A DNA stretch of 64,000 bases from a virus (taxonomy: Duplodnaviria > Caudoviricetes), in IMG/VR virus record IMGVR_UViG_2645728093_000001, positions 16,033-80,032 of that record; one strand, written 5' to 3'. Positions 17,213-30,146 of this stretch are shown here, in pieces. The notes under the pieces are model-generated. The model searched no databases and was not told the origin of the DNA. It worked only from the letters and a program-made list of their open reading frames with translations. How positions within the stretch are numbered: the first letter of the stretch is position 1; every line of letters begins with the position of its first letter. A program made the position numbers and the translations under genes.

Positions 17213-17557
17213 ATGGCTCGAAATCGCATCCCGACACTGGGCTCCCGTATCGCGACGCTGGATACCCGCAAGGCCAAGCCGCTGCCGAAGAAGGCCGACC
17301 CGCACTATCAGACCGCCGAGCACGAGGAGTGGGCAGAGTTTGTTAAGCGGCGCGCCGGCTATCGCTGCGAGCACGTCGACGACGGCAAGCGGTGCTGGCG
17401 CAGTGCCGAAAAGGGGTACCGGATGTACGCCGACCACATCAAGGACATCAAAGACCGGCCAGATCTCGCGCTCGATCGCGACAATGGCCGCTGCGCCTGC
17501 AGCTCGCACAACGTCCGTGCAGGCATCCAGGCGCGAGCAAACCGCATGAAATCGTAG
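17213..17557 (+). CDS. Small HNH endonuclease, HK97 gp74-like terminase accessory type
   Basis: YQTAEHEEW...RAGYRCE...ADHIKDIKDRPDLALDRDNGRCACSSHN. Confidence 0.8.
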   Translation: MARNRIPTLGSRIATLDTRKAKPLPKKADPHYQTAEHEEWAEFVKRRAGYRCEHVDDGKRCWRSAEKGYRMYADHIKDIKDRPDLALDRDNGRCACSSHNVRAGIQARANRMKS

Positions 17558-17563
17558 GGGAGG

Positions 17564-17806
17564 GTGAGCATGAAGCTGAACGCGCGCGAACTCGAGCTTC
17601 AGGCGCTAAGAGTGCGCAGGTACGAGGCGGCGCAGGCCCTCAAGCGCGAGCTCGACGCCAAGGATGCCGCGGCGGTCGCGCAGGACGCGGCAGCCAAGCC
17701 CCCGGCGTCGGCGGCGAAGCCGGCCAAAAAGGCGGCTGCGAAAAGTAGGCGCAGCCGGGCCTCGAGCAAAATCGGCCGTAGCCGGGGATCTCGCAAGAAG
17801 TCGTAG
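17564..17806 (+). CDS. Small basic hypothetical protein
   Basis: GGAGG SD; Ala/Lys-rich; 3' end overlaps motif B copies. Confidence 0.45.
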   Translation: MSMKLNARELELQALRVRRYEAAQALKRELDAKDAAAVAQDAAAKPPASAAKPAKKAAAKSRRSRASSKIGRSRGSRKKS

Positions 17807-17814
17807 CCGGGGGA

Positions 17815-18024
17815 CTAACGGAGTCGCAGTTCGCGCTCGATCGCCGGTTGACGGTTCATGAGTTCCTGGACGCAGGGAGGGACGGGATCCTTCCGGCCCA
17901 GCGCGGCGCCGGTCGCCACCGCATCTGAGGCGCGGCGCGCAAGCTGCAGCCAACCGAATAGTGCAGCGGTCGGCATTGCCCGGATTTGGTCGAGATTAGG
18001 TGGCGTTGTCGTTGCAGTGAGCAT
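17815..18024 (-). CDS. Hypothetical protein, last gene of antisense block
   Basis: 69-aa ORF co-oriented with the block, ends next to motif B. Confidence 0.4.
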   Translation of the reverse strand: MLTATTTPPNLDQIRAMPTAALFGWLQLARRASDAVATGAALGRKDPVPPCVQELMNRQPAIERELRLR

Positions 18025-18072
18025 GCGCCGCTGGTGGCAGCAGGACTAGTCCGACAATCAGAGCCAGGCGCC

Positions 18073-18414
18073 TCATGCCTCTTCCTCGTCGATGTCGGCC
18101 GGCATCTGCCGAAGCTTCTGATATGGGAAGGCTCCGAGCTCGGGATGTAGCCGGTCCTCCTCGATCATCGCCGCGGCAGCCATTCGCGCCGTTCCCTTCG
18201 CCTCCGGGAGCGTCATCAACGTCAGCGCGATCGGCACCCAGGTCGGAATGTCCTGAAGCTTCCCGTCCGCTCCGCTCCGGCCCCATCGGTTCACGGTGAC
18301 AAGATTCTGGCACCATATCCTGGCGAAGGCTTTCCGTGTCAGGCCCTGCCGCTCAAGCTCGCGATCGAAATCCTCGCAGGCGATCTTCTTGTGTCTGAAG
18401 CGTGGCGGGGCCAT
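18073..18414 (-). CDS. HTH-like DNA-binding protein
   Basis: LERQGLTRKAFARIWCQNLVTVNRWG...IPTWV; AAGGAGG SD and variant motif A upstream. Confidence 0.65.
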   Translation of the reverse strand: MAPPRFRHKKIACEDFDRELERQGLTRKAFARIWCQNLVTVNRWGRSGADGKLQDIPTWVPIALTLMTLPEAKGTARMAAAAMIEEDRLHPELGAFPYQKLRQMPADIDEEEA

Positions 18415-18536
18415 CACGGTCCTCCTTTTCGGTTGGGCACAGTCGCCCGAAATCGGCCGTAGCCGAGGGTATGGCGGATAGGTGGAGCGGAGTCGAGTCC
18501 GCGCCGGGCCGGCAAAATCGGCCGTAGCCGAGGGGG

Positions 18537-18902
18537 TCAAAGCCCCTTGAGCGGTGACACGAAGGACTTACCGTCCATCGCGATGGTCGAGATCTCGCCG
18601 GGCCCTTCGATCATGCGCAGCCATTCCCCCTCGGATCCGGTGAAGCCTGGCCCGGCCTCGACGTGGTGCGCGGCCAGCCACTTCGCGAGATCGCGCGCCG
18701 AGGCGCAGGGCGGGGAAAGCGGCGTGCCGGCGGTCGTCGTCTCGTAAAGCTGCCAGTGCGTGCAGGCCTCCGCCGGCCAGGCGGGCATCCGCTGATCGGT
18801 TGCCCGCGCCAGCGCGTCGTCCGCCTTGCGCAAGGGGATGTAACGCCGGCCGTTCTTGGGGTGCTGCCAGTCTGCCGGCACTCGCCTAACCTGCCTGCCC
18901 AT
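18537..18902 (-). CDS. Hypothetical phage protein
   Basis: MGRQVRRVPADWQHPK...WQLYETTTAGTPLSP. Confidence 0.7.
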   Translation of the reverse strand: MGRQVRRVPADWQHPKNGRRYIPLRKADDALARATDQRMPAWPAEACTHWQLYETTTAGTPLSPPCASARDLAKWLAAHHVEAGPGFTGSEGEWLRMIEGPGEISTIAMDGKSFVSPLKGL

Positions 18903-19180
18903 CAGAATAACGCCCCCTGGGCGGGTGGCGGCTCTGCAGCGGCAGCCAGGCGGCCGAGATGCTCGACCGTCTCGGCGATGATCCGCTCGCGGTCGTCGTC
19001 GACCAGCAGCCAACCATCATCACTGCCGGCGGGATCGTAAACCACGAAGTTGCCGCCCCATTTCGCATGCACGCCTTCGGCAACCCGGCGGACGAATGGC
19101 GGGACGTCTGTAACCGCTTTGAAGTCGGCCCAAGACGCGATTTTGTAGCCGGCCGTGGCGATGATCTCCTCGGCGGTCAT
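18902..19180 (-). CDS. Hypothetical protein
   Basis: Coupled to both neighbours; GGAGG SD. Confidence 0.65.
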   Translation of the reverse strand: MTAEEIIATAGYKIASWADFKAVTDVPPFVRRVAEGVHAKWGGNFVVYDPAGSDDGWLLVDDDRERIIAETVEHLGRLAAAAEPPPAQGALF

Positions 19181-19365
19181 GATCCGCCTCCCTCTGCGCG
19201 TTCGAGATTGGCCTGAAGGTCCCAGGCCTCATAGATAGCCCGTCGTGCCTCCGTGAGTTTCGCTCGCACCTCCGGCAACAGCCGCTTGTCTTCGGCATCG
19301 ACGACGCGCGCGACGGCGTCCAAAAGTCTATTGTAGACGTCCCAGTGGAATGGATGCTTCCGCAT
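19177..19365 (-). CDS. Hypothetical protein
   Basis: MRKHPFHW with GAGGAG SD. Confidence 0.6.
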   Translation of the reverse strand: MRKHPFHWDVYNRLLDAVARVVDAEDKRLLPEVRAKLTEARRAIYEAWDLQANLERAEGGGS

Positions 19366-19428
19366 GCGGGATACTCCTCTCAAAAATCAGTCGTAGGGAA
19401 GGGGTGACGAAGTAGGCGCAGCCGGGGC

Positions 19429-19806
19429 TCAAATAAACCTGCCGCAATCGATGCACCGGCCGCGTCCGTCGTCGCGGTGCCGGCACGGCTTGAACGCTTC
19501 CGCCTCTGTGTCCGACCAAGCCCGCTCGGTTTCCGTGGCGATGTCCCAGCGCCCGCAGAACGAGGCGAGGTAAGCGCGCTGCTCTTCCGTCAGTTTTTCG
19601 TCGTGCAAGTGCTCGTCGGCGCTCCCCAGGTTGAGGCCTTGCTCCTGATTCCAGCGTGCATATTCCCGGATGAGCAGATTAATCGGGCCGTCGTCATTGC
19701 CTGGCAATTGCTCCGGTGCCGGCTTGGCATTGGCGCCGCCGAGCGCTTCGATGATGCCGGCGCGCGCGCCTTCGATTGGTCCGGAAAGCTTCTTGTTGTC
19801 GGTCAT
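19429..19806 (-). CDS. Hypothetical protein with C-terminal CxH...CxxC
   Basis: AAGGAGG SD; CRHRDDGRGRCIDCG. Confidence 0.7.
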   Translation of the reverse strand: MTDNKKLSGPIEGARAGIIEALGGANAKPAPEQLPGNDDGPINLLIREYARWNQEQGLNLGSADEHLHDEKLTEEQRAYLASFCGRWDIATETERAWSDTEAEAFKPCRHRDDGRGRCIDCGRFI

Positions 19807-19865
19807 GGTCGGAATCCTCCTTTTGCAAAATTGGCCGTAGGCGAGGGGAAGGCGCAGCCGGGGGA

Positions 19866-21812
19866 TTATCCCGGCGGCCCCTCGATCACGAGCAAGGCGG
19901 TATTCACGGAGGTCCCAGCATGCTTAAACGATCCCGCCGGGAGGTCGCGCCACTCCGAGGCAATCGGCATCAGCTTGTCCCGCTGGCGCGGACCGTTGGC
20001 GCAGATCGCGACGAGCCGGCCGCCAGGTTTCAAAAATTTGCGGGCGTGCTCGATATGCTGGATGTCCGCGCCGCGCTCGAACGGCGGGTTCATGATGATG
20101 CGGTCGAACTTATCGACCGCGCCGGCCATGTCCATGAAATCAGCATTGATGATGGTCACGCCCTGCTGTGATCGGCCGAGAGTTTGCGCAACCTGGTGAT
20201 TGATCTCAATCGCCACGATGTCGAGCGACCCGGCGCCATGGACGCGCGCGGCCTCGATGAGCGCACCCGTTCCCGCGCTTGGCTCCAAGATGCGATGGCC
20301 AGGCCTGATGTCGGCCAACTCTGCAACCTCGGCCGCGAGTTCGGGCGAAGTCGGGAAGAGTTGCGGCGCAACCACGACTTGCACGCCGCCGCCTTTCAGC
20401 ATGGCCCGCATTGCCTCAAAATCAGCCGTAGGCGAGGCCGCCGGCAAATCGGCCGTAGCCGGGAGGGAGTCGAGCGCATCGACCAAGACGGGGCGCGGTG
20501 CAGGCGCAACCGGGGCCAGGGTAGCAGCTGGCTCGGCCGTTTCCTGCGGCTCGCCCATGATCTCCGAAACCAGCGAAAGCGCGGCATCGAGATCGGCGTC
20601 CGGCGTCGCGACGTTCTCGCGGACGAATTCCGCCGGGCTTTGCGGTTGGCCGTGATCCTTGCTGTCAGTCAGATAGACCGCGACCAAAGAATGCTTGACC
20701 ATAGCTGTGCGGAAGCGGTGCGACTTGTCCGCGCTCCACCGCGCGCCCTTATAGTCTTTGTTGATGCGCGCATATTCAGCCTTGGTCATATCGACTTGCG
20801 GATAGGTGGTGGTCCGGCCGCGGTCGTACATATTCGTTGTCGTGATTTCTCCGCCAGGGGCGCGATAATTCAACAACGGCGGGAGTTCGCGACGCGGTTT
20901 CGGTGCCAGCAAGCCGGACGCGCCGGCCTCATCCAACATTGCGCGTTCATAGGCCAAGCGGTTTTCAAAATGCTCAATCCAGCGATCTTGATGAGGAATC
21001 GCGCGCTCATAACCCGGGATGGCGATGGCGGCGGCTTGCGCGGCGGTTATGACGTTACCGTCAATCGCTGACCAAAGCCCCATGGGGCCTTCATACTGCG
21101 AAGCGGGCGGGTCGCGCGGATAGTCGGCGAGCGGGAATGACATTGACCAATAGCCGCCCGCATTTGCAACGGTTAGCCCGACCGCGCGCTGCTTCTCAGC
21201 ATCATTGATGCCGGCCACGATTTGCCATGCCTTGATTTGCTTTTCGGCATTAGCCTTGCTGCGCTCGACCTTGCGCTTTTCCGCCTCAATGGTCTTGATG
21301 CGACGCGCGCGCACTTCGGGGAGTTCTTTGTATTTCGCATGTGCCAGAGCGCCGGCGGCGCGCCCGGTCCAATATTGCGACGTCCGCCACATCTGCACGG
21401 CTTTGCGCATGCCGGCGTCAATCTTCTCCTTGTCGCGGCGTGCATGCTTCTCCGAATGGTGCCCGACGAGGATCGGCCGACCAAACGGGATATTGTCCGC
21501 GATCTCGGCAACGGCTTTGCGCGCGCGTTCCGCGTCGGCCATGCGCTTTTCGCTGTAGTCCTCAAAGCGCTCGGCGCGCTGCTCGGCGCGATCGACCAGG
21601 CTTGTATCCTCGTCACCGATCTCGCCGCAGAGCTCAATCAGCAAATCCTCGGCGGCCGGCGACCAGGACGGCTTGACGAAGAGTTCCTGTTTCGGTGCCC
21701 ATTTGAAGCCGAGCGCCTCGACGCGTGCATAGGTCTCGGCGTCCAAGCGCTGCGAGGCGTACAGGCGCAGCTTGTTGTCATCGGGCGAGTAAGTGGCGGA
21801 ATAGGTGGTCAT
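19866..21812 (-). CDS. DUF3560-domain protein fused to an amino-methyltransferase domain
   Basis: ATYSPDDNKLRLY...IPFGRPILVGHHSE (DUF3560-like); ILEPSAGTG SAM-binding and IMNPPF catalytic motifs. Confidence 0.85.
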   Translation of the reverse strand: MTTYSATYSPDDNKLRLYASQRLDAETYARVEALGFKWAPKQELFVKPSWSPAAEDLLIELCGEIGDEDTSLVDRAEQRAERFEDYSEKRMADAERARKAVAEIADNIPFGRPILVGHHSEKHARRDKEKIDAGMRKAVQMWRTSQYWTGRAAGALAHAKYKELPEVRARRIKTIEAEKRKVERSKANAEKQIKAWQIVAGINDAEKQRAVGLTVANAGGYWSMSFPLADYPRDPPASQYEGPMGLWSAIDGNVITAAQAAAIAIPGYERAIPHQDRWIEHFENRLAYERAMLDEAGASGLLAPKPRRELPPLLNYRAPGGEITTTNMYDRGRTTTYPQVDMTKAEYARINKDYKGARWSADKSHRFRTAMVKHSLVAVYLTDSKDHGQPQSPAEFVRENVATPDADLDAALSLVSEIMGEPQETAEPAATLAPVAPAPRPVLVDALDSLPATADLPAASPTADFEAMRAMLKGGGVQVVVAPQLFPTSPELAAEVAELADIRPGHRILEPSAGTGALIEAARVHGAGSLDIVAIEINHQVAQTLGRSQQGVTIINADFMDMAGAVDKFDRIIMNPPFERGADIQHIEHARKFLKPGGRLVAICANGPRQRDKLMPIASEWRDLPAGSFKHAGTSVNTALLVIEGPPG

Positions 21813-21916
21813 GCTCGAAAGCTCCTTTCAGATTGCGCACAATCGCGCGGGGATGCGGTTCATAGGGGGCCCGCTGAATCTCGTCAACGGGAAAATCAGT
21901 CGTAGCCGAGGGGAAA

Positions 21917-22099
21917 TCAATCGTAGCCGGGAGGGCGCAACTCCGGGTGCACTCGGTAGAGCATCGCATAGGCGGCATCGCGCGACCGGTGCGCGGAAGT
22001 ACCGAGCTTGGTGATACTGAGCCAGTCGCCGGCCCATCGCCCGGGGACTTCACTGGCGAGACAGACGCGCGGTTTGTTGGCCTTGCTTTTCTTTGCCAT
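21917..22099 (-). CDS. Hypothetical protein
   Basis: MAKKSKANKP ORF ending in motif B. Confidence 0.45.
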   Translation of the reverse strand: MAKKSKANKPRVCLASEVPGRWAGDWLSITKLGTSAHRSRDAAYAMLYRVHPELRPPGYD

Positions 22100-22218
22100 G
22101 TGATCAGGCCTGGATTTCGTGGCTTTCGATGATGCAGGCACCATCGAAGGATTCTTCCCAAAGGGCGGAGATAGCCTCAGCGCCCAACGTGTCGAGATTG
22201 TCGGGCATCGGCTTAGCC

Positions 22219-22932
22219 TTATAGCCAGTCCGCAGCCTCGCGCGCGGCGGCGAGCGCTTTGGCTTCCGTCGCAAAGGCCTCCGTGCCAATCCCCATGTTG
22301 TCGCCGTCGGTTGTCAGCGTCCAAACCGTCACGCCGGAAGGCGCAACCGAGGGGGCCGCGGCGCCAGGCGGGAGCAAAGCGGCATACGCCTTGATCGCGC
22401 TCGCGACGGCATCCGCGGCGCGCGCCAATGCCTCGTTTTGCGTGCCGTCGTCGGTCGTCATTTCCGCCCGCATGGCGTCGCGGTGCGTCTCGGCGATGGA
22501 TTCCCATGAAGGCGCAGCCGGGGGAGTGTGCGCCTTGAGACGATCCGCGAGCGCTTCCCAGCGCGGAATCCATGCGCCGTCTGCAGCCGCGCGCGCGTGG
22601 CGGAGGCTGGATTCTACCGCCATCAACAAATGCTGACGTTCCGGCTCGGTGAGCGGCGAAGCGGCATCGGGCGCCGGCATGGGCCGCAGTGCCTCGCCTT
22701 CAAGGCTGATAGAGTCCTCCGGCCATTCCGTGCCGTCATGAGCGACGAAAAGCGATTTCCCGCGCGCGTCCGTCGTTGTGTGCTGGCCGTCCCAGCACAC
22801 TTTGGTTTCGTCCATGTGGTTGAATTCGAGCGACCCGTCAGGATTTCGGCCTGTGATCTCGCACCAGGCGTTGCCGGGGATGAGATCGGCGGTTGCAACG
22901 ATCTCGCTGCCGGTCGGTGAAAATGCTTTCAT
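22219..22932 (-). CDS. Hypothetical protein (possibly frameshifted, continuing to 22104)
   Basis: Motif A and GAAAGGA SD before MKAFSPTG. Confidence 0.7.
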   Translation of the reverse strand: MKAFSPTGSEIVATADLIPGNAWCEITGRNPDGSLEFNHMDETKVCWDGQHTTTDARGKSLFVAHDGTEWPEDSISLEGEALRPMPAPDAASPLTEPERQHLLMAVESSLRHARAAADGAWIPRWEALADRLKAHTPPAAPSWESIAETHRDAMRAEMTTDDGTQNEALARAADAVASAIKAYAALLPPGAAAPSVAPSGVTVWTLTTDGDNMGIGTEAFATEAKALAAAREAADWL

Positions 22933-23034
22933 GATGTTTCGTCCTTTCGCTTTGCGCACTATCGCGCGTCGGGAAATCAGCTGCAGCCGGGGCTGCGGGT
23001 CATCAACGGGAAATCGGCCGTAGCCGAGGGGCGG

Positions 23035-23313
23035 CTAGAGATTCACCTCGTGAAAGCCGGACGCGCCAGGAAGCTTTTTGAAACCAGGCGGGGAGCGATC
23101 GCGGCGGCCGATCCGCATTGACACAACGGCCGGCTTTCCGGTTGCCGCGACGTCGGCGCGGTAAGTCTCGAATTCGCGCGCGGCGTCCGCGGCGCGCTGT
23201 ATTTCGACGGTGCGGCCGGGGAACGGCAGCGCGTCGCCGGACAAGCAAAGATGAACCGAAACGAAAGCGCCGTTACGCTCGGCCGGATAGCTGCTCAGGA
23301 TCAATTTAGCCAT
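23035..23313 (-). CDS. Hypothetical protein
   Basis: Motif A and GAAAGGAG SD before MAKLILSSY. Confidence 0.75.
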   Translation of the reverse strand: MAKLILSSYPAERNGAFVSVHLCLSGDALPFPGRTVEIQRAADAAREFETYRADVAATGKPAVVSMRIGRRDRSPPGFKKLPGASGFHEVNL

Positions 23314-23397
23314 TGGGTTAGCTCCTTTCATGGTGCGCACGATTGCGCGTGAAATCGGCCGTAGCCGAGGGGTTGAGGAAATCAGACGTAGCCGGGA

Positions 23398-23811
23398 CTA
23401 GGCCGCCGCGGCGCGCTCCGCCGGCAACTCTTTGGTTTGCGCGACGTCGAAAACCGGGACCATGACGAAACGGACGGTTGGCGCCTCGGCCGCCTCCGCC
23501 GCGCCGGCTTCATTGCTCGGCGCCGAGGCCTCGGCCTTCCGCGCGCCAGTCGGCGCAAAGATGTAAAGCGCGCTTTGACCTTCCTGGACAACGCGACCGG
23601 CCGCAATCCATTGCTGGAAGCCGCCGACCATGGTTGCGGTCTGGCATTGCAGCGCGGCCAAAAGTTGATTGTTGCCGGACAACGCGCTGCCGTCGATTGT
23701 CAGGATCGGGACGCGCGCCAGCCATTGCGCCTTTTGTTCATCCGTCATGTTGGCAATCTGTTGCGCCAACTGGCGCGCCTTTTCTTTGTTCGGGTTCTCT
23801 TTCTTCCGCAT
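23398..23811 (-). CDS. ArdC-like N-terminal ssDNA-binding (antirestriction-associated) domain protein
   Basis: LSGNNQLL..LQ...ATMVGGFQQWIAAGRVVQEGQSALYIFAP...FVMVPVFDVAQT. Confidence 0.75.
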   Translation of the reverse strand: MRKKENPNKEKARQLAQQIANMTDEQKAQWLARVPILTIDGSALSGNNQLLAALQCQTATMVGGFQQWIAAGRVVQEGQSALYIFAPTGARKAEASAPSNEAGAAEAAEAPTVRFVMVPVFDVAQTKELPAERAAAA

Positions 23812-23866
23812 GTCGTTTGCTCCTTTCGATTTGCGCACAATCGCGCGATGGAAACGGCCGCGCCGA

Positions 23867-24064
23867 TTACTTCCAGGCCTTTGCGATGCGAAGTCCGCCG
23901 CCGTCGATAACGTCGCGGGGTTCAAGGCTGGCCAATCCCTCGGCCTCGAATTCGCGCGCCGCGGTTTCAAACCTATGGCCAGGGTAAAGCAAGACTCCGC
24001 CCGGCGCGGCTTGCTTCAATGCGCCAAACAACGCGTTACGTTCTTTAATCGAGGCCTTCCGCAT
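23867..24064 (-). CDS. Hypothetical protein
   Basis: GGAAGGA SD directly after a motif B pair. Confidence 0.6.
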   Translation of the reverse strand: MRKASIKERNALFGALKQAAPGGVLLYPGHRFETAAREFEAEGLASLEPRDVIDGGGLRIAKAWK

Positions 24065-24126
24065 TTCTTATCCTTCCGAAATTGGCCGTAGCCGAGGGGG
24101 ACGCAAAATCAGCCGTAGCCGAGGGG

Positions 24127-25188
24127 TTAGGCCGAGGCGCCAAATCGAGGCGCAACCGGGAGGCGCGCGATCGGCGCGCCGAGCGATGTTGACGCGAGAA
24201 AGCGCGCGGCCAGGCGAGGCGCCGCGGAACGCGCGGCCGGCGCGACGTCCGCCGCGGCCGGTTGCTCGGCCCGCGCCTCGGCCGCCGTTACCAGCCGGAG
24301 GCGCGGCGCCTCGGCCTCGGCCGCCGCAATCCGCGCGCGGCGCCTTTCGAGATAGGCCGCGACCCGCGCGGCCTTTGCCTCGGCCTTTGCGGCCGCCTCG
24401 GCTTGCCGGCGCGCCTCGGCCTCGGCTTTATCGATGGCACGGCGCCGCGCGCCAATCTCAAAATTGCACATGCCGGAAAGCCGGAGGCGGCAATCCTCAA
24501 CCGTTGCCGCCAGCTCGGCCGCGGGGGTTTCATCTGCGCCGGATTGCTCGGCCTCGGCCATCGCGATTCGGTAATGAACCCGCCAGAATTCGGCGCGCGT
24601 TACGGCACCGTCCGGCGCCTTCTCAGGTATTGCCTCGGCCTCGGCCGCAAGCGCGGTTGCGTCGAATGTGCCGCGGCGCGCCTCGGCCGTCCGTTCGCTG
24701 CAATCGGTAGCGTCGAATTCGGCGCCGTTGTCGCACGCGATGGAAGCGATTGCAGGGATTGTGACGATATCGGAATCAGCGGAAAAGGCGCCGGCCGTCC
24801 GAGCAATGCGCGCGCGGTAATAAGCGAAAGCAATCCGGAGGCCTCGGCCAATGTTTAGCGGCTTGCCAGGCAATGAAACGGCCGGCGCGCGGACAACGGC
24901 GCCGCATGCGAACGTGACAGTAAGCACGGGCGATTTACCAAGCCGCCGGCCGTTCGCGGATTGCGGAATGGCATAATCGGCCCATGGTGCGAAACGGCTT
25001 TCCGGCGCCTCGGCCGAGGCTTTGGGCGCGGCTTTGGTGGCAGGGATAGCCAATCGCAGCAAATCCGCAACGGCGCGCCAGTTAGCCGCGCCAGGATCCT
25101 GACAAGCATTGTCATAGGCGAGAATGGCCAGGCCTTTACGTTCGGAGGCTTTCGCCGCGCGCGCGGCCGTCAAATCAATCTGATGCAT
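24127..25188 (-). CDS. Ala/Arg-rich hypothetical protein with coiled-coil C-terminal part
   Basis: Motif A and GAAAGGA SD before MHQIDLTAA. Confidence 0.7.
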   Translation of the reverse strand: MHQIDLTAARAAKASERKGLAILAYDNACQDPGAANWRAVADLLRLAIPATKAAPKASAEAPESRFAPWADYAIPQSANGRRLGKSPVLTVTFACGAVVRAPAVSLPGKPLNIGRGLRIAFAYYRARIARTAGAFSADSDIVTIPAIASIACDNGAEFDATDCSERTAEARRGTFDATALAAEAEAIPEKAPDGAVTRAEFWRVHYRIAMAEAEQSGADETPAAELAATVEDCRLRLSGMCNFEIGARRRAIDKAEAEARRQAEAAAKAEAKAARVAAYLERRRARIAAAEAEAPRLRLVTAAEARAEQPAAADVAPAARSAAPRLAARFLASTSLGAPIARLPVAPRFGASA

Positions 25189-25255
25189 GGGAAACGTTCC
25201 TTTCGAGTTGCGCACAATCGCGCCGGTTGGATTGCTCGGCCGAGGCCGAGGCGGA

Positions 25256-25555
25256 TTAGCTCTGTAGTTTGGCCAGGCGCCGCGCGTCGATTGCGGCGCG
25301 AATCTCTTTCTTGAACCGGCCGGCATATTGGCCATGAAACGTGCGGGACGTTGCTACCGCGCGATCTAGCGCAAGCTTTGCGGTCCGGTAGCGCGGCGCG
25401 AATTTGATAGCATCGGGGGTCAATCCCATTGCACCGCGCGCGGGAATTCCGAGCTCGGCCGCCAATGTGTCCCGGATTGCGTCATGGCATGCCGTTGCGT
25501 CGCGCAAGGCTTGCTCTAGTGTGGCCGAGGCGGCTTGATACTCTGCAAACGTCAT
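25256..25555 (-). CDS. Hypothetical protein
   Basis: GAGGGG SD; RGAMGLTPDAIKF. Confidence 0.7.
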   Translation of the reverse strand: MTFAEYQAASATLEQALRDATACHDAIRDTLAAELGIPARGAMGLTPDAIKFAPRYRTAKLALDRAVATSRTFHGQYAGRFKKEIRAAIDARRLAKLQS

Positions 25556-25569
25556 TGCCTGGTTTCCCC

Positions 25570-25908
25570 TCAATAGCCGGCCGCCTCGGCCGCATAATCC
25601 CGCTGGCCAGTTTCGCCCGGTTGCCAATCGGGAAACCGCGCGCCGTTTTCCGTATCGTCATAACCGGCCGCCAATCGGTCCGCGGGACAATGGCAGCTGC
25701 CATGCTGGGTTAGCCGGCCGTCACAATCGGCGCCGTCTTTGCACCAATCGTTGACAACGGTCCGCCCGTCGAATGAAAACGCATTGCTTTCGCGGTGCCA
25801 TCCTTCGTCCGTGCGGCCGCCGTGCGAATGGTGCAAGGTCTGGCCGGACCGAATCTTGATCTTGACCAATCCAGACTTGTGATAATGCCAGAAGCGCGCG
25901 GTTTGCAT
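25570..25908 (-). CDS. Hypothetical protein
   Basis: GAAAGGA SD; TDEGW...DCDGR...QRDYAAEAAGY. Confidence 0.75.
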   Translation of the reverse strand: MQTARFWHYHKSGLVKIKIRSGQTLHHSHGGRTDEGWHRESNAFSFDGRTVVNDWCKDGADCDGRLTQHGSCHCPADRLAAGYDDTENGARFPDWQPGETGQRDYAAEAAGY

Positions 25909-25922
25909 GCGGCGGTATCCTT

Positions 25923-26264
25923 TCAAGGTAATGCGTTGAAATTGGTCCGATAGGTCGCGGCTTCCAAGACGCAACGTCGCGCGGCTTCCAGATTGATAAC
26001 GCGCCCCATGGGATAGCGTTGCGCGGTCCGCCTATATTCCGCCGCCCATGCCAAAGCGTCCACCGCCAACGCGCGCCTAGGCCGCTCAGAAAGGCGAGAT
26101 GTACGGAGGTAGTAGCGCGGCATGCGGCCGGGCGGACGTTCTGCCGTAATGATAAAGCGGACTCCGCCCGCAACGAAGTCGCGGCCGATTCCGTACTGTT
26201 GAACGGCCGCGCGGGTTTCCGCTCGCAAGCCTTGCATCAGTTTCCGATAAGCCGCGCGATTCAT
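25923..26264 (-). CDS. Hypothetical protein
   Basis: ATGA-coupled to upstream ORF. Confidence 0.6.
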   Translation of the reverse strand: MNRAAYRKLMQGLRAETRAAVQQYGIGRDFVAGGVRFIITAERPPGRMPRYYLRTSRLSERPRRALAVDALAWAAEYRRTAQRYPMGRVINLEAARRCVLEAATYRTNFNALP

Positions 26265-26659
26265 GCCGCTTGCTCCATTTCGCAAACCGGAGTCCAACCC
26301 GTGGCCACGTCATAAGAGGCCGCGCGCGCGATCATGGGCGGCCGGCGCAATTCATCGTCCGCCGCAATTATGCCGTAGCGTTCCGGCGCCGCGTCAAGTT
26401 TGGCCATTTGCGCCATGTGCTCGGCCGCGCGCCAGGCATTGAAGGCCGCGACGATATCAGCCGGCAATGGATCAATGCTGCGCACAAGCATTCCGATTCC
26501 CGTCCGCATGGCGCGGCGGACGTCGTCACCGTTCGCAATCGACAGCTCATAATCCGAGACGCTGTGACGGATTGAGGCCTCAAAGGTTTCGGTCGCGGTT
26601 GTGACGCGATAGTAAACCGTTCCCATGAATGAGCATTGCCATTTGAAACGTGGAGTCAT
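26261..26659 (-). CDS. Hypothetical protein
   Basis: Motif A and GAAAGG SD. Confidence 0.7.
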   Translation of the reverse strand: MTPRFKWQCSFMGTVYYRVTTATETFEASIRHSVSDYELSIANGDDVRRAMRTGIGMLVRSIDPLPADIVAAFNAWRAAEHMAQMAKLDAAPERYGIIAADDELRRPPMIARAASYDVATGWTPVCEMEQAA

Positions 26660-26696
26660 GGTCTAGCCTTTCGAGTTGCGCACAATCGCGCGGGTT

Positions 26697-26939
26697 CTAT
26701 TCGGAAAAATACGGTTTGCGGTCCCCAGCCTTGCGCGCCTCGGCCTTCGTTCTATTGTCAAGCCTTCCTTCGCACGCGCAAAGATGCATTAGGCAAGCGC
26801 CGAGTTCCGACGCGGCGTCACCGTAGTTAAGCCCGCGCTTTATTTGCTTTCCATACTGGACCGTGAATTGGTCGAATCCGGTTTGGATCAATCGAACGGG
26901 GAAGCCGGAGGAAAGCTCTTCAAAGCAAACATTTCGCAT
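26697..26939 (-). CDS. Hypothetical protein
   Basis: GGAGG SD; FTVQYGKQ...LNYGDAASELGAC. Confidence 0.7.
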   Translation of the reverse strand: MRNVCFEELSSGFPVRLIQTGFDQFTVQYGKQIKRGLNYGDAASELGACLMHLCACEGRLDNRTKAEARKAGDRKPYFSE

Positions 26940-26942
26940 GCT

Positions 26943-27140
26943 TTAGCCTCCCGTTGCTTCGTCAAAGCGCGCGGCTTCAAAATCGCGGCTAGCTTGCTCG
27001 GCCTCGGCGCCGGTCAACATGGCGCGGGAGGTAGGATAGTAGAAAACGCGCGTTCCCTTTGGGATGAAAACCCCTTTCCTATCACTGCCGGGATATTTGG
27101 TAATGATCCATCGCGGATCGCCGCCGACATGCTTTCGCAT
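26943..27140 (-). CDS. Hypothetical protein
   Basis: Motif A and GAAAGGA SD; GDPRWIITKY. Confidence 0.7.
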   Translation of the reverse strand: MRKHVGGDPRWIITKYPGSDRKGVFIPKGTRVFYYPTSRAMLTGAEAEQASRDFEAARFDEATGG

Positions 27141-27231
27141 TAGGTTTCCTTTCGAGTTGCGCACAATCGCGCGTTTGGTCCGCCGTGGCGTTCCGTTGTA
27201 CGGCGCAACGCGGCGCCCCACCGTCGGAACG

Positions 27232-27336
27232 TCAAAGGCAAGAATTCAGAAATGCACGCTTGCCGCTACGTGCGACCAATCGGCGAGTCCGCTTATCGTT
27301 CGGCTTGCGGTCAGTCTCATGACGGGCATAACGCAT
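27232..27336 (-). CDS. 34-aa basic peptide
   Basis: Motif A and GAAAGGA SD before MRYARHET. Confidence 0.6.
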   Translation of the reverse strand: MRYARHETDRKPNDKRTRRLVARSGKRAFLNSCL

Positions 27337-27429
27337 AGTCGTTTCCTTTCGTGGTTGCGCACAATTGCGCGGTTTCGGCGGTTTGCCGGCTAAGCCGAGG
27401 CGCTGCGGCCTCGGCTTAAACTGCAAACC

Positions 27430-27666
27430 TTAGCTGATACGCTCGCAAGCGCCGTTTTTGGGATTCCAGCTAATCAACATATCGCCAACCCGGACCGAAT
27501 AGCCGCGCGACATACGAACGGCGCGCGGTGCGGTCCGGCCGGTTTGCTGCAGCCAACGGCCGCAATCCCAAGCAATGCCCGATGCACTCGAATGATAGAA
27601 AGGATTCCGCGCCTCGGCCGGCGCCTCGAAACCCTGTTTTACCTCGGCCGTCAAATCGGTTGCCAT
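27430..27666 (-). CDS. Hypothetical protein
   Basis: GAGG SD; NPFYHSS...AWDCG...VRMSRGY. Confidence 0.65.
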   Translation of the reverse strand: MATDLTAEVKQGFEAPAEARNPFYHSSASGIAWDCGRWLQQTGRTAPRAVRMSRGYSVRVGDMLISWNPKNGACERIS

Positions 27667-27676
27667 GGTCGCGGCC

Positions 27677-27862
27677 TCAAATCGCGATTGCAACGGCAAG
27701 GCGCGCGGTGCGGATAGCGTCAATGCGGCGCGCCGGAATGGTGCGATCCGCCGCGGCGATCCGTTCGGCCAGGCTGATAAGACGGTGCGCGAGGCCGAGG
27801 CGGCCGAGCTCGATTGCGTTTGCAGCGTCTAGCAAAAGGCCTTTAACGGTATTGTTTCGCAT
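27677..27862 (-). CDS. Hypothetical protein
   Basis: Motif A and GAAGGA SD before MRNNTVK. Confidence 0.65.
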   Translation of the reverse strand: MRNNTVKGLLLDAANAIELGRLGLAHRLISLAERIAAADRTIPARRIDAIRTARLAVAIAI

Positions 27863-27906
27863 GGTCGTTTTCCTTCTGAGTTGCGCACAATCGCGCGGGT
27901 TGAAAC

Positions 27907-28065
27907 TTAGTAGCGGTTGCGGCGCCGATAGCTCGGCCGGCGCCTCCGGACCGGCGCGCCATATTCGACGGCCGCAAGCGCGAGCCAACCGACAACGGCC
28001 AGGCCGAAAAGAAACGTTGCCGGCAACATCGGGTTGGCGATGCAAAAGGCGATAAAGGCTTGCAC
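27907..28065 (-). CDS. Small membrane protein
   Basis: TAAGGGG SD, GTG start, one hydrophobic segment and a basic tail. Confidence 0.5.
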   Translation of the reverse strand: MQAFIAFCIANPMLPATFLFGLAVVGWLALAAVEYGAPVRRRRPSYRRRNRY

Positions 28066-28075
28066 GGTGCGCCCC

Positions 28076-28300
28076 TTAAGCAATCGGCCGCGATTGATCG
28101 GCAGAGACTTCGCACAAAACAACGCGATAGAAGGCGCGGGAATTGCGCGGGCGATCTCCGCCGCGAACGGCGGAGAAGGCAAGGCGCCGATACATTGCCT
28201 CGAAAGCATCAGCCGACGATTTGAGGAAAAGGCGCGCGGTCCAATCGCAACCGGTCAAGGTGCAGCGAAAGCGGATGTCAAAGGCTTGGCGGCGGGACAT
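28076..28300 (-). CDS. Hypothetical protein, first motif-A-led gene of the block
   Basis: Motif A and GAAAAGG SD. Confidence 0.6.
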   Translation of the reverse strand: MSRRQAFDIRFRCTLTGCDWTARLFLKSSADAFEAMYRRLAFSAVRGGDRPRNSRAFYRVVLCEVSADQSRPIA

Positions 28301-28339
28301 GTTCGGGCCTTTTCGGTTGCGCACAATCGCGCGTTTCGT

Positions 28340-28380
28340 GTCCCGCACATGCCTATATCAGCGGCCGGCCGTCAAGAGGG
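28340..28380 (-). promoter_or_regulatory. Putative sigma70-type promoter driving the antisense block
   Basis: CTTGACG at 28376-28370 with AT-richer DNA upstream; -10 element is weak or ambiguous. Confidence 0.4.
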
Positions 28381-28484
28381 AAAATGCAATTCAGTGAAAA
28401 GAATTTGCGAAAAGCCGGCAACGGCGCCGTTTATGTCACTATCTAGTGACGGCCGAGGCCTCTAGTAGTTCGGCCGCGGCTGGA

Positions 28485-28796
28485 TCATTCGCGCATTGCC
28501 TTATGCACTCGGCCGAGGCGCCGGACGTCCGCCCATGCATCCGCCGCGCCGATACCGGCAAGCACGGCGCGACATTTAAGGCCTAGCTCGGCCGTCCCGC
28601 CGTTCTGCCGTGCAGCTGTGACGGTATTCGGCGAGATGAATAGAACGGCCGCGGCCTCCCCATTGGAAAGGTCTAACTCGGCTTGCCATGCCTGGAATTC
28701 GGCCGCCGTGATTCGCAGTGCGGTGGCGGCCGAGGCATAGGCGCGGGACCGCGCCAGGGTTTTGCCGGTTGCGTGCTTTCGAGGCTTAGACGTCAT
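28485..28796 (-). CDS. HTH DNA-binding protein
   Basis: ITAAEFQAWQAELDLSNGEAAAVLFISPNTV; GGAG SD. Confidence 0.7.
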   Translation of the reverse strand: MTSKPRKHATGKTLARSRAYASAATALRITAAEFQAWQAELDLSNGEAAAVLFISPNTVTAARQNGGTAELGLKCRAVLAGIGAADAWADVRRLGRVHKAMRE

Positions 28797-29025
28797 TGCT
28801 TTTCACTCCGCCGTGACTCTTCCCAGGTATCTCAGCCGGCAACTATCACAAATCAGGGAATGGCCGAGGCCTCGGCTTGCAATCGTCCCCGGGTTTTGCG
28901 CGGAACCCGATTTGACAACCGACTCCGCAACTGATTCAGAATAGGCACGGTGATGGATTGTCACTGAAGCAAGCCCGCCAGGCACAAGCCGCGGCGGGCT
29001 TTGTGTTTGGCGGAGGCGCCAGCCC

Positions 29026-29292
29026 ATGGCAGAGCACGACAAGCCCGCCATTCTAACCCGCTATTGGCAGCCAACAGGCCGAACGCGTATGCGCACCGGA
29101 TGGTTTGGCTTGCTCGTTATCGAGGTGCTGCAGGAACGCGTTGCCATGGTGGGAAAGCGTTGCGAACATCAGGCACGCTGGCGCCGTGCATCGCGTGGCC
29201 AGGTCGTAACGTTCGGGCAGGGTAGCACGGTGCGCCCCCATGTCCTCGATACCGTCAACCCGCACCGTTACGACTTCGTCCGCCGTGGGTGA
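29026..29292 (+). CDS. Hypothetical protein
   Basis: GGAGG SD; TGRTRMRTGWFGLLVIEV...RWRRA. Confidence 0.5.
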   Translation: MAEHDKPAILTRYWQPTGRTRMRTGWFGLLVIEVLQERVAMVGKRCEHQARWRRASRGQVVTFGQGSTVRPHVLDTVNPHRYDFVRRG

Positions 29293-29684
29293 TATCGTCG
29301 GCTTTAGGCCGGCAGCTGGCCGGCCACATGATCGGCCGGCCTTAGAGCGCGGCGCCGTCGGTAGCGTTGTGGCACTGCCCGTTATCAGGATTGAGCGGGA
29401 CGCAACGGCCGACGCATGGGACGGCTTGCCAAGTGACAGCGCCCCGCACCATGCGGCGCTATGGCCAGAGCAGAGCTAGGCGCCGAGGCCTCGGCGCTTG
29501 CCTGCCACGTCAACCCGTCACTACCAGACAACGCTAGCCGTAGAGGCGAGGGATTGCCGCGCGGCGCGGCGCGCCGGCTTGCCAGGTACCACCATAGCCG
29601 CCTCGGCCAGGCCTTAGCATCGCATCAATCGGGCGAAACGAGGCAAAACAGCCCCAAACCCGGCCGTTTCGCCAGCAAAAGCCG

Positions 29685-29800
29685 CCCACCACCCCGGGGG
29701 GGGTGAATTCCCGGGCAAACCGCGGGGGGCCGACCGCCAGGGGTCTCATTTGGAGATTTTTTTGGGGCGGCCGAAATTTTGGGCTCTGGCGTCATTTTTG
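29685..29800. other. Candidate cos / packaging initiation region
   Basis: CCCCGGGGGGGGTG...GGGGGGCCGACCGCC...GAGATTTTTTT upstream of terS resembles cos regions of HK97-like phages; oligonucleotide usage switches here. Confidence 0.5.
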
Positions 29801-29826
29801 ACGATTTCGAGAAAAACGGGAAATCC

Positions 29827-30135
29827 ATGCGCAGCACCGGTCAGACGAAAGCGATGGTCGAAAAGCTGCCTGAGACCGGCTCGGTCGTCGTGGTGCATAC
29901 CGACCCGCTGCGATCGCATGTCCGCGACATGATCCTGACCCTGCGCGGATCCGAGGTGCTTGGACGCACTCGGATCGAGGTGATCAAGAACCGCGAGGCT
30001 GCGGATCGGTTGGTCGGCCTGCGCGTGCCCGTGTTCGTTGACCACGCCTTCGCCGACCATGTCAGCCGTGAGACCGCATCTGCGGTTCGGGCTTTGGCCG
30101 ACGGGACGAACTCGATGTTCCGGAAGGCCGGCTAA
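29827..30135 (+). CDS. Hypothetical protein
   Basis: ORF directly upstream of terS with late-gene codon style. Confidence 0.6.
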   Translation: MRSTGQTKAMVEKLPETGSVVVVHTDPLRSHVRDMILTLRGSEVLGRTRIEVIKNREAADRLVGLRVPVFVDHAFADHVSRETASAVRALADGTNSMFRKAG

Positions 30136-30146
30136 GGAATTCCAGG

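Follow-up and report, generated by a model that had tools for sequence, protein, structure and literature searches.

A conserved, covarying hairpin upstream of the Shine-Dalgarno sequences of eleven accessory genes in a temperate phage of Bradyrhizobium-type bacteria: a possible common RNA operator

Results

Eleven hairpins in a leftward accessory-gene block

The window analysed here is a 64,000-nt stretch of an 80,032-bp virus record (IMGVR_UViG_2645728093_000001), the source of which is a temperate phage of Bradyrhizobium-type bacteria. Between positions 18435 and 28332 it carries 11 copies of a 14-nt hairpin, all on the minus strand. When the record was searched with a covariance model made from these 11 copies (filters off), they scored 37.6–48.2 bits and the next-best match 12.8 bits (E 0.09); the entire record holds 11 hairpins. 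The hairpin family of 11 genes reported in an initial annotation of this DNA thus exists, although the positions given there are about 2 nt off.

The block is read leftward, and all features below lie on the minus strand. Its first gene (28485..28796), which has no hairpin of its own, is a weakly Xre-like HTH gene (PF20432, E 0.0095, below cut-off). Hairpin 1, GCGCGATTGTGCGC (28319-28332), is followed by AA, a spacer, AAAAGG and the ATG of a 74-aa gene (module 28298..28332, 44.0 bits). Each subsequent module likewise consists of a hairpin, a Shine-Dalgarno sequence (SD) and an ATG: hairpin 2 (27883-27896; module 27860..27896, 47.6 bits) heads a 61-aa gene; hairpin 3, GCGCAATTGTGCGC, with an A-U closing pair (27357-27370; 27334..27370, 37.6 bits), heads the gene of a 34-aa arginine/lysine-rich microprotein (27232..27336); hairpin 4 (27159-27172; 27138..27172, 48.2 bits) a 65-aa gene; hairpin 5 (26678-26691; 26657..26691, 47.1 bits) a 132-aa gene; and hairpin 6 (25210-25223; 25186..25223, 45.2 bits) a 353-aa gene. 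The cargo further includes an ArdC-N-like 137-aa gene (PF08401, E 1e-5) behind hairpin 7 (23833-23846; 23809..23846, 47.3 bits), a 92-aa gene behind hairpin 8, GCGCAATCGTGCGC (23335-23348; 23311..23348, 40.0 bits), a 237-aa gene behind hairpin 9, GCGCGATAGTGCGC (22954-22967; 22930..22967, 40.8 bits), and a 648-aa DUF3560 + methyltransferase gene (PF12083, E 2e-35) behind hairpin 10 (21835-21848; 21810..21848, 45.0 bits). A variant, hairpin 11 (18435-18448; 18412..18448, 39.0 bits), precedes the last gene, which encodes a 113-aa HTH-like protein (18073..18414).

On the minus strand, which is the mRNA strand, seven of the 11 copies read GCGCGATTGTGCGC; one has the loop ATAG, position 5 is A in two, whose loops are ATCG and ATTG, and the variant reads GGGCGACTGTGCCC. 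Downstream of all 11 stems come AA (AC once), 3–6 nt, GAAAGG or a near variant, and ATG. The pattern GCGCRATNGTGCGC matches the record ten times, always on the reverse strand, and the same pattern reversed gives no match; a loose two-mismatch scan shows no enrichment in this GC-rich window (109 found, 137 expected). The hairpins had no match in an Rfam search, no paper was found to contain the motif strings, and in two Bradyrhizobium genomes every scored match lies within one prophage stretch of roughly 10 kb. The possibility raised at the outset that the motif is a known Rfam family or a host repeat was therefore checked with a negative result.

Hairpins keep a fixed distance from the SD and start codon

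In the window, the 11 stems end 18–22 nt before the ATG; the initial annotation was right that this distance is fixed but had put it at 17–21 nt. Among 112 distinct copies with a recognisable stem, the first SD-like tetramer lies 6–9 nt from the stem end in 97 and the start codon 18–23 nt from it in 92, and every copy has the orientation of its gene. On our own gene map, 37 nt or more separate the start of each of the 11 hairpin genes from the stop codon before it, and seven of the ten non-first genes that lack a hairpin overlap the previous stop or begin at most 14 nt from it, which is the range of translational coupling.

This layout could be explained by a module that acts only in cis, each hairpin serving for 5' protection or processing, or as an insulator that leaves the A-rich spacer and SD unpaired. 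Every cistron of a long polycistronic RNA would then have a stable, efficient and context-independent ribosome-binding site, and a specific binder would be unnecessary. The fixed hairpin-SD spacing, the unpaired A-rich spacer and the lack of pairing between hairpin and SD agree with such a module, as do the inability of hairpin-headed genes to be translationally coupled and their uniform SD, GAAAGGA, where other block genes have varied SDs. Stem-loops at 5' ends shield mRNAs from 5'-end-dependent decay, and intercistronic hairpins stabilise segments of the Rhodobacter puf mRNA. However, in the comparisons described below, A6, G9, U10 and the C4-G11 pair stay invariant amid a changing stem, which is unexpected of a purely structural element, and this loop invariance spans phages with no more than 39% identity in the HTH protein that they share. 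The distinct GGGC/GCCC stem of the last gene, a G-C flip, is moreover retained at the orthologous site in relatives, phage G006 included. We consider a purely cis-acting module unlikely.

The stem covaries on the sense strand and the loop is conserved

Pairing was first claimed to be under selection from the window's 11 copies, which do not establish covariation: they offer a single double change and two switches from G-U to A-U. Folding energies in five contexts of 61–71 nt are no better than those of shuffled sequences (z from -0.52 to +1.61), and the predicted fold takes a different register in one of the five. The claim is borne out instead by relatives, through changes in four of five stem pairs and through wobbles.

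Thirteen related (pro)phage or host records carry 2–12 copies each, on one strand and in one block. The proportion of paired cells, which is biased upwards because copies were picked by a model or filter that rewards pairing, is 99.6% in close relatives (91 distinct copies), 95.9% in distant phages (26 copies) and 95.5% in an ungapped alignment of 31 distinct hairpin types. The double change among close relatives, seen in 8 cells that all lie at orthologous sites, goes back to one event that was inherited. Among the distant phages, both sides have changed in four of the five pairs, and covariation is 0.314 against 0.102 in shuffled alignments, with none of 500 shuffles as high; the 31 hairpin types likewise show both-sided changes in four of five pairs, with 18 cells altered on both sides (0/500 shuffles as high). 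Of 577 scored cells, 72 are G-T wobbles on the sense strand and none is A-C. Phage G006 has loops of 3, 4 and 5 nt together, which upholds the earlier suggestion that intrastrand pairing on the mRNA-sense strand is selected and is hard to reconcile with a dimeric double-stranded DNA operator.

The loop region changes far less: C4-G11 and A6 are present in all 31 hairpin types, U10 in 30 and G9 in 29. The distant phage L309 retains the loop RATTGT on four different stems (CCTC/GAGG, GGAC/GTCC, GGGC/GCCC and CCGC/GCGG). Given the covarying stem, the strand-specific wobbles, the variable loop length and the fixed loop bases, the element is a sense-strand hairpin, most likely of RNA, that is apparently read specifically.

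A role in DNA has to be weighed against this, since the conserved, oriented 14-nt near-palindrome has the 5-4-5 layout of an HTH operator and the block is flanked by HTH-like genes at both ends. One possibility is a compact promoter that an unrecognised polymerase or sigma factor would use, perhaps, as in N4, in the form of an extruded single-strand hairpin; another is a stoperator-like repressor site keeping the block silent in lysogens. If transcription began just past the stem, the closeness of the SD would be accounted for. The wobbles confined to the sense strand, the outer stem covarying about a fixed asymmetric core and the three loop lengths in one phage argue otherwise, and hairpin 5 begins only 5 nt past the upstream stop codon. 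Sigma70_r2 and r4_2 domains were not found in the record, and 17400-30200 contains no sigma-70-like promoter; a search of the record for a T7-type RNA polymerase gave no match, the control of that search likewise matching nowhere. A single soil metatranscriptome contig (low depth, one run, could contain DNA) covers 17933-18456 without differences and so takes in hairpin 11 together with the 8 nt upstream, a weak hint of transcription through this hairpin and a correspondingly weak point against a DNA element. We judge a DNA-level element to be very unlikely as the explanation; however, Aca-type proteins bind one repeat both as DNA and as RNA (extracts of PMC13551039), so a role in DNA could coexist with one in RNA.

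Two candidate readers are encoded in the block

A member of the family of the last gene's HTH-like protein occurs in every hairpin-bearing record examined, among them eight provirus records and G006, G008, G007, G532 and G010, and it is the only block protein common to L309 and the window. This co-occurrence represents about two independent lineages, the clade with GCGC-type stems and L309. The HTH label of the 113-aa protein is putative, based on Atlas look-alikes and our reading of the sequence. No Pfam family matches the protein at an E of 0.01 or better. Nor does any PDB sequence at an E of 1 or better, which includes those of any solved Aca structure in the bank; its AlphaFold model is poor (mean pLDDT 58.4). 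The other candidate is the microprotein, whose 30–34-aa Arg/Lys-rich family is conserved at eight of nine related loci (six by tblastn; G006 and G008 by ORF scan); in L309 the microprotein was not established, a 44-aa ORF there aligning with an hhalign probability of 2.2%. Neither candidate has a recognised RNA-binding domain.

A basic peptide encoded near 5-bp stems with 4-nt loops recalls lambda, where N contacts boxB through an arginine-rich motif and boxB is likewise a small-loop hairpin with a 5-bp stem in nascent early RNA. The hairpins might accordingly be nut/boxB-like sites at which the microprotein, on nascent RNA, lets polymerase read through the terminator-like family-B elements between cassettes, and family-B repeats do lie 2–23 nt upstream of several hairpins. 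But boxB has a GNRA-like pentaloop, is accompanied by boxA and is present in about two copies per phage, whose distance from an SD is not fixed; antitermination needs no set distance from the SD and one or two sites per operon are enough, whereas here there are 9–12 hairpins, each 6–9 nt from an SD. The peptide, at only 34 aa, showed no relationship in any test run. Terminators are not enriched (15 found, 15.6 expected), two B copies lie within the DUF3560-methyltransferase reading frame, and the 5' half of the block has hairpins without B repeats. Antitermination is thus, in our estimation, highly improbable.

A possible translational operator and its precedents

We tentatively favour, at a probability of about 0.45, the reading that the hairpin is a common operator in RNA, read by one phage-encoded factor and acting on translation. 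A protein-bound translational operator was the first of the options listed in the initial annotation; RNA folding, protein binding, the binder's identity and the translational output are what we infer in preferring it. The hairpin would be part of the leftward block's mRNA leader or intercistronic RNA, with a 4–5-bp G+C stem, a loop whose first base is A and whose last is G, U as the closing base on the 3' side, and an unpaired AA after the stem. It would stand 6–9 nt upstream of a strong SD (GAAAGGA) and 18–23 nt upstream of the start codon. Given the extent of the 30S footprint at a ribosome-binding site, a factor occupying roughly -33 to -20 would be at the 5' edge of the 30S site, and could in this way switch the block's cistrons jointly in translation and perhaps also in stability; those under joint control would be all the independently initiated ones. 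The reader may be the last gene's conserved HTH-like protein, as a dual DNA/RNA binder of the Aca2/Aca1 kind, or alternatively the arginine-rich microprotein. If this is true, eleven accessory genes are controlled together in translation by one phage factor.

Aca2 and Aca1 are HTH regulators whose RNA targets are hairpins in 5' UTRs, and RNA motifs between genes have been predicted in anti-defence operons (extracts of PMC13551039). These motifs are the closest precedents: as described there, they are small structured RNA hairpins adjoining the ribosome-binding site of early counter-defence genes, the HTH regulator gene is in the same operon, motifs between operon genes are also predicted, and the proposed output is translational repression (PMC13551039). 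The phages here differ in having 9–12 copies each, against up to three clustered motifs in those extracts (PMC13551039), in a hairpin sequence that is not theirs, in an HTH-like protein that lacks a match to solved structures at E 1 or better, and in having no identified acr gene. In Cluster A mycobacteriophages, stoperators are also many oriented short sites through operons, served by one phage regulator, but are described as asymmetric duplex-DNA sites without a pairing requirement (extracts of PMC9283540); here pairing covaries and wobbles are strand-specific.

Two loose analogues named in the initial annotation proved not to include this element, which lacks their defining features. SAS and ESAS of Cluster K mycobacteriophages resemble it as one-orientation repeats directly 5' of start codons, at non-structural genes only, which are kept across subclusters before different gene families and are suspected of a role in translation initiation (extracts of PMC3203893). 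SAS, however, is asymmetric, 13 bp long and inclusive of the SD, and lies 3–7 bp from the start, and ESAS consists of 17-bp inverted repeats with a variable spacer for which, in the extracts, the authors found little RNA-pairing support (PMC3203893); here a 14-nt hairpin lies upstream of the SD, with compensatory changes, in phages of unrelated hosts. PeSLs of T4-type phages are likewise short conserved regulatory units beside small accessory early genes which mark points of gene-content difference between relatives, but each comprises an early promoter and a terminator stem-loop (extracts of PMC2839356 and PMC4122927); here there is no sigma-70-like promoter, and the hairpin is tied to the SD instead.

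Some hairpins coincide with cassette boundaries

The initial annotation had also suggested cassette shuffling, and boundary behaviour is indeed seen. Among 57 blastn alignments of at least 150 nt between the window's block and eight related loci, 15 end between -6 and +12 nt from a hairpin's upstream edge (about 0.9 expected), at five distinct hairpins, although identical sites turn up again in related genomes and so make these ends dependent on one another. No alignment among the 57 begins at a downstream edge, and gene content is mosaic among blocks. A conserved 26-nt unit might thus serve mainly as short homology for cassette swaps, with regulation secondary; to this we give the least credence, as homology needs no compensatory stem changes, fixed loop or fixed SD distance, and 23 of the 57 alignments extend through a hairpin with over 30 nt aligned to either side of it.

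The hairpin repeat and its background

The leftward block occupies window positions 18073-28796, with a replication module on one side of it and packaging and head genes on the other, all of them rightward. The window covers bases 16033-80032 of an IMG/VR record of 80,032 bp that is linear and estimated to be 89% complete. The block holds about 22 mostly small genes, 11 of which have a hairpin in front. On the mRNA strand the motif reads GCGC(G/A)-A-N-N-G-UGCGC, followed by AA, 3-6 nt and the Shine-Dalgarno (SD) sequence GAAAGG(A), with ATG 18-22 nt past the stem. A covariance model constructed from the window's copies and run with filters off recovered exactly 11, all on the minus strand and scoring 37.6-48.2 bits (next match 12.8 bits), and found no copies elsewhere in the record. 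This confirms the copies and the placement described in the initial annotation, whose sequence variants were all correct and whose coordinates were about 2 nt off. A strict pattern gave 10 of 10 matches on the minus strand (reversed control, 0). As a loose scan with two mismatches found no enrichment in this 62-65% G+C DNA, and the hairpin folding energies were not better than those of shuffles, it is repetition, placement and comparison that make the case, and not thermodynamics.

Distribution of the hairpin

The initial annotation had considered that the motif might match a known Rfam family or a host repeat, and both checks came out negative. Rfam 15 gave no match in the window at the gathering score, and at E <=1 over 17500-29900 it gave only two unrelated sub-threshold matches, neither of them on a hairpin. 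Two Bradyrhizobium genomes have 9 and 11 matches among the 150 first-look candidates scored, out of about 6,500, confined in each to one stretch of about 10 kb; a REP-like repeat spread over the host genome was rejected because these copies are not scattered over the chromosome. Among 121 genomes from the same bacterial family, one has a multi-copy array, three have a single match and 117 have none. Since the arrays are confined and one genome in 121 is multi-copy, the hairpin is not a host-wide repeat.

We found the exact 16-mer in multiple copies in eight IMG/VR provirus records. The covariance model yielded 11, 11, 9, 10 and 12 copies in five proviruses (108-132 kb), in each case on a single strand and within about 10-12 kb, nine copies in a sixth provirus (G009), and nine, two and ten in the more distant phages G006, G007 and G008, respectively. 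The hairpin belongs to the accessory block of a temperate-phage clade. Among the matches listed, those of the exact 16-mer in genome contigs were mostly single and at chance level; matches of the A-variant 16-mer in viral contigs were mostly chance singles, and just 5 of the 75 new loci had an SD context. No match to the block turned up among 50,697 phage records searched by megablast, and in the text of 8.4 million papers and preprints the motif strings returned one irrelevant match (a primer-like string in a paper on mitosis). The loop complement CACAATYG showed no occurrence outside the hairpins suggestive of a trans-acting RNA; its strays, two outside the block and one in a coding region, are chance-like.

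Pairing on the sense strand

In the window alone, covariation amounts to a single C-G to G-C flip plus two changes of G-U to A-U, which is thin evidence. Close relatives supply 91 distinct copies, with 99.6% of cells paired. The sole double change there is the same C-G/G-C flip, in 8 cells that all precede the last gene at orthologous positions and so count as one inherited event. In the 26 copies of G006, G007 and G008, four of the five pairs are changed on both sides and 95.9% of cells are paired; they score 0.314 for covariation (shuffles, 0.102), and 0 of 500 shuffles are as high. Single variants in these distant phages are UGGCA..UGCCG, UCGCA..UGCGG, UCGCA-AUUC-UGCGA and UGCGA-AUUU-UCGCA, and G006 alone has loops of 3, 4 and 5 nt. 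An even more distant phage (locus L309 of record G532; 67 kb, with terminal repeats), reached via its HTH protein, has five copies on one strand, each 7-9 nt upstream of an SD, in which the loop (G/A)AUUGU is unchanged on the stems CCUC/GAGG, GGAC/GUCC, GGGC/GCCC and CCGC/GCGG (twice).

We then combined 31 distinct hairpin types in an ungapped alignment, having filtered for at least four of five pairs, the C4-G11 pair (numbered along the 14-nt hairpin) and a loop starting with A; the 14-mer at L177:2354-2367 (minus), which has no SD context (E 0.075), was left out. In this set 95.5% of cells are paired, a percentage biased upwards because the filter required pairing. The diversity of stems is free of this bias, and comprises 18 both-side changes in four of the five pairs. 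The covariation score of the 31 types is 0.442, compared with 0.166 in shuffles, and none of 500 shuffles reached it. On sequence comparison, it is the distant phages that decide for what appears to be a selected structure. Selection on a single-stranded structure had been proposed in the initial annotation from window evidence that was too thin, and the covariation among relatives bears the proposal out.

All 72 of the paired non-Watson-Crick cells are G-T on the sense strand, and A-C, which equals G-T on the other strand, occurs in none of the 577 scored cells. This strand-specific wobble, together with the variable loop and an outer stem that covaries round a fixed asymmetric core, indicates pairing within the sense strand and not a dimer operator in duplex DNA. 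The same features, with loops of variable length, argue against a promoter or operator acting at the DNA level, which we consider quite improbable. The paired sense strand being the mRNA, the hairpin is most naturally read as RNA. A contig from a soil metatranscriptome spans 17933-18456 with 0 differences, and so includes hairpin 11 (18435-18448) and 8 nt upstream of it; coming from one run of low depth, as contigs and not reads, and with DNA carry-over possible, it is a weak hint that the hairpin is transcribed. In the same run 0.10 of the block's sampled words are present, and contigs cover only parts of 17.9-22.9 kb and 29.2-29.6 kb, the uncovered parts being uninformative.

Placement and proposed function

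In 97 of 112 copies 6-9 nt separate the stem end from the SD, and in 92 of 112 the start codon lies 18-23 nt past the stem. The hairpin thus lies at about -33 to -20 relative to the start, which is the upstream edge of the 30S footprint. On the gene map, all 11 hairpin genes begin at least 37 nt past the preceding stop codon, whereas, of the ten others that are not first in the block, seven overlap the preceding stop or begin within 14 nt of it, and can be translationally coupled. This indicates that the hairpin marks sites of independent initiation. There is no pairing between the hairpin and the SD, so any control would be exerted via a hairpin binder or mRNA stability.

Over the 31 types, C4-G11 (31/31) and A6 (31) are invariant, and U10 (30) and G9 (29) nearly so; the unpaired AA past the stem is kept in the GCGC-type clade. 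That these loop and C4-G11 positions are fixed across phages whose shared protein is 39% identical argues against a purely structural spacer. That it acts in cis only, as a stabiliser or insulator, is unlikely in our estimate, as a spacer of this kind would not hold C4-G11, A6, U10 and G9 fixed. The best explanation, to which we would give a probability of roughly 45% going by sequence, is a protein-bound translational operator, the role listed first in the initial annotation.

A possible but doubtful extension of the operator reading is a phage-wide post-transcriptional regulon, in which about a dozen identical operator hairpins would be read by one small factor. This phage factor would gate translation of a swappable array of early counter-defence genes; it could be a 34-aa arginine-rich peptide or an HTH protein with added RNA binding. 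The regulator's own gene would have a deliberately different operator, with the GGGC/GCCC stem, leading to autoregulation, and the hairpin module would double as the plug-in junction for incoming cassettes. If one factor does read the hairpins, they would form the largest known set of RNA operators within a single phage operon, and RNA binding by HTH proteins of the Aca type, recently found at one or two sites in an operon, would be extended to an entire array of accessory genes. A single reader would also account for the swapping of unrelated counter-defence genes under one timed control, as each new gene would either bring this hairpin-SD module along or be placed behind one. As a practical marker, the motif points to early accessory (candidate anti-defence) genes in Rhizobiales prophages, and the module is a compact, portable candidate part for translation control.

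Candidate readers

The first candidate reader is the 113-aa HTH-like protein encoded by the block's last gene (18073-18414). This gene is the best conserved in the array and is found in eight of nine related loci at 54-78% identity. Its family numbers 163 clusters at E <=0.001 among 1.84 billion representatives, and a member is found in every hairpin-bearing record examined (eight proviruses, G006, G007, G008, G010 and G532); in L309 it is the only protein in common with the window's block. A class-level genome search for the family matched 6 of 401 genomes, G010 alone at full length and the rest in weak partial form. No match was found by tblastn of the protein against phage and plasmid collections, and scans with a single protein or small alignments yielded nothing among more distant loci. 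The protein looks like the Xre/HTH_3 type by its Atlas look-alikes, which carry HTH_3/Xre-like families (score 0.92). Its predicted model is helical and of low confidence (pLDDT 58.4), it has no Pfam family at E <=0.01, and its profile matched no PDB sequence at E <=1, hence no solved Aca structure in the PDB. The first gene of the block (28485-28796, minus), which has no hairpin of its own, is weakly Xre-like, below the cut-off.

The hairpin of the last gene is always GGGC/GCCC, with a related GGC form in G008. The variant would be in keeping with an autoregulatory operator that differs in affinity, but it is also explained by simple inheritance. At L309:6240-6320 the HTH-family gene has, in place of the common hairpin, an 8-bp stem upstream of it, CCCTTCGC...GCGAAGGG, whose 3' arm holds the gene's own SD-like GAAGGGA.

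The second candidate is a 34-aa arginine/lysine-rich microprotein (27232-27336, minus) with no Pfam family. Its relatives, of 30-34 aa, Arg/Lys-rich and with a C-terminal AFLNS-like motif, are recognisable in eight of nine related loci, including G006 and G008, each of which has a second paralogue; family members lie at 1898-1996 and 2292-2390 of L176 (G006:C1:1-18000) and at 2311-2403 and 2646-2744 of L177. A 44-aa ORF in L309 is similar by eye, with a non-significant hhalign probability of 2.2%. Arginine-rich peptides that bind small hairpins exist, lambda N among them. Antitermination of the N/boxB kind, as the function of the hairpin itself, is in our judgement very improbable.

Comparison with known systems

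The hairpin is not a member of SAS, PeSL, boxB, stoperator or any Rfam family. In one report (PMC13551039), Aca2 and now also Aca1 are described as binding promoter DNA and structured 5' UTR RNA, Aca2 binding as obstructing the ribosome-binding site, and RNA motifs as predicted between genes within anti-defence operons. Like these motifs, the hairpin lies close to the SD (6-9 nt in 97/112) and has a covarying stem (4/5 pairs); unlike Aca2 and Aca1, the last-gene protein matches no described Aca family when compared via PDB sequences and Pfam. As a translational operator, the hairpin would come closest to the Aca RNA motifs in its mode of action, at a far greater scale and through a protein unrelated to theirs.

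The SAS of Cluster K mycobacteriophages, named in the initial annotation as a loose analogue, is an asymmetric 13-bp sequence, GGGATAGGAGCCC, which includes the SD and lies 3-7 bp from the start (PMC3203893). Membership of SAS/ESAS was rejected, as the hairpin differs in sequence and precedes the SD, with 18-22 nt between its end and the ATG. The second analogy of the initial annotation, with the PeSLs of T4-type phages, holds in part. PeSLs combine an early sigma-70 promoter with a terminator stem-loop, and membership was rejected because 17400-30200 has 0 promoter-like sites, versus 2.5 in shuffles, and AA instead of a T run follows the hairpin; what the two share is that they mark boundaries of gene insertion or replacement between relatives. 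Sigma-70 domains were not found, nor were sigma-70-like promoters in the block (17400-30200). Promoters of the N4 type are template-strand DNA hairpins used by a single-subunit virion or phage RNA polymerase; the wobble pairs here suit the sense strand and not the template strand. A search with PF00940 (T7-type polymerase) gave no match, and its control likewise matched in no genome.

Cassette junctions and gene content of the block

Fifteen of 57 long alignments to relatives stop between -6 and +12 nt from the upstream edge of a hairpin, where about 0.9 would be expected by chance; these stops are spread over five distinct hairpins, and no alignment begins at a downstream edge. This suggests that the hairpin moves together with its downstream gene and marks the junctions between cassettes. 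That it is a mere recombination landmark has, in our view, very little probability.

A second repeat, family B (core CTACGRCYGATT), has ten copies on the minus strand at 17781-24118, only in the 3' half of the block. They are often paired in tandem behind a stop codon, and lie 2-23 nt upstream of some of the hairpins. Some copies only can form a UCGGC-UACG-GCCGA hairpin, and relatives keep the core sequence, not the pairing. Two copies at 20431-20470 (minus) lie inside the open reading frame for a 648-aa DUF3560 and methyltransferase protein (PF12083, E 2e-35). They fall in the interdomain linker, for which they encode ...TADL... and ...TADFE.... This suggests that a fusion of two cassettes, across what used to be a junction, gave rise to the gene.

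The block also has an ArdC-N-like gene (PF08401, E 1e-5). The remaining block proteins scanned gave no Pfam family, the sole further matches being two far below Pfam cut-offs. Gene content varies among relatives, and the genes carried are in line with an early counter-defence set. In the 5' half (24000-28800) the genes were missed by a GC3-based gene caller, and the lowest G+C of the window is in the 26-28 kb bin (0.601); the composition of these genes is atypical for this phage. No tRNA genes were found in the window.

Past the first HTH-like gene, at 28340-28480 (minus), there is a palindrome, AACGGCGCCGTT, with a T-run, followed by an A+T-rich stretch; the same interval contains CTTGAC...TATAGG with a spacing of only 13 nt. 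Directly upstream of the first hairpin is TATAGGCATGTGCGG, which is kept in relatives. The interval may be the main promoter or operator region of the block. Between the block and the packaging genes, about 1 kb (28797-29778) has few genes and many short repeats, with a C/G homopolymer palindrome at about 29689-29702 and a sub-threshold match to Rfam Bp2_287 at 28968-29079 (29.4 bits, against a gathering score of 70); cos and divergent promoters could lie here. In G006 (104.6 kb, classed as linear and 100% complete) the array begins 847 nt from the left end of the contig, which would fit a block at the genome terminus.
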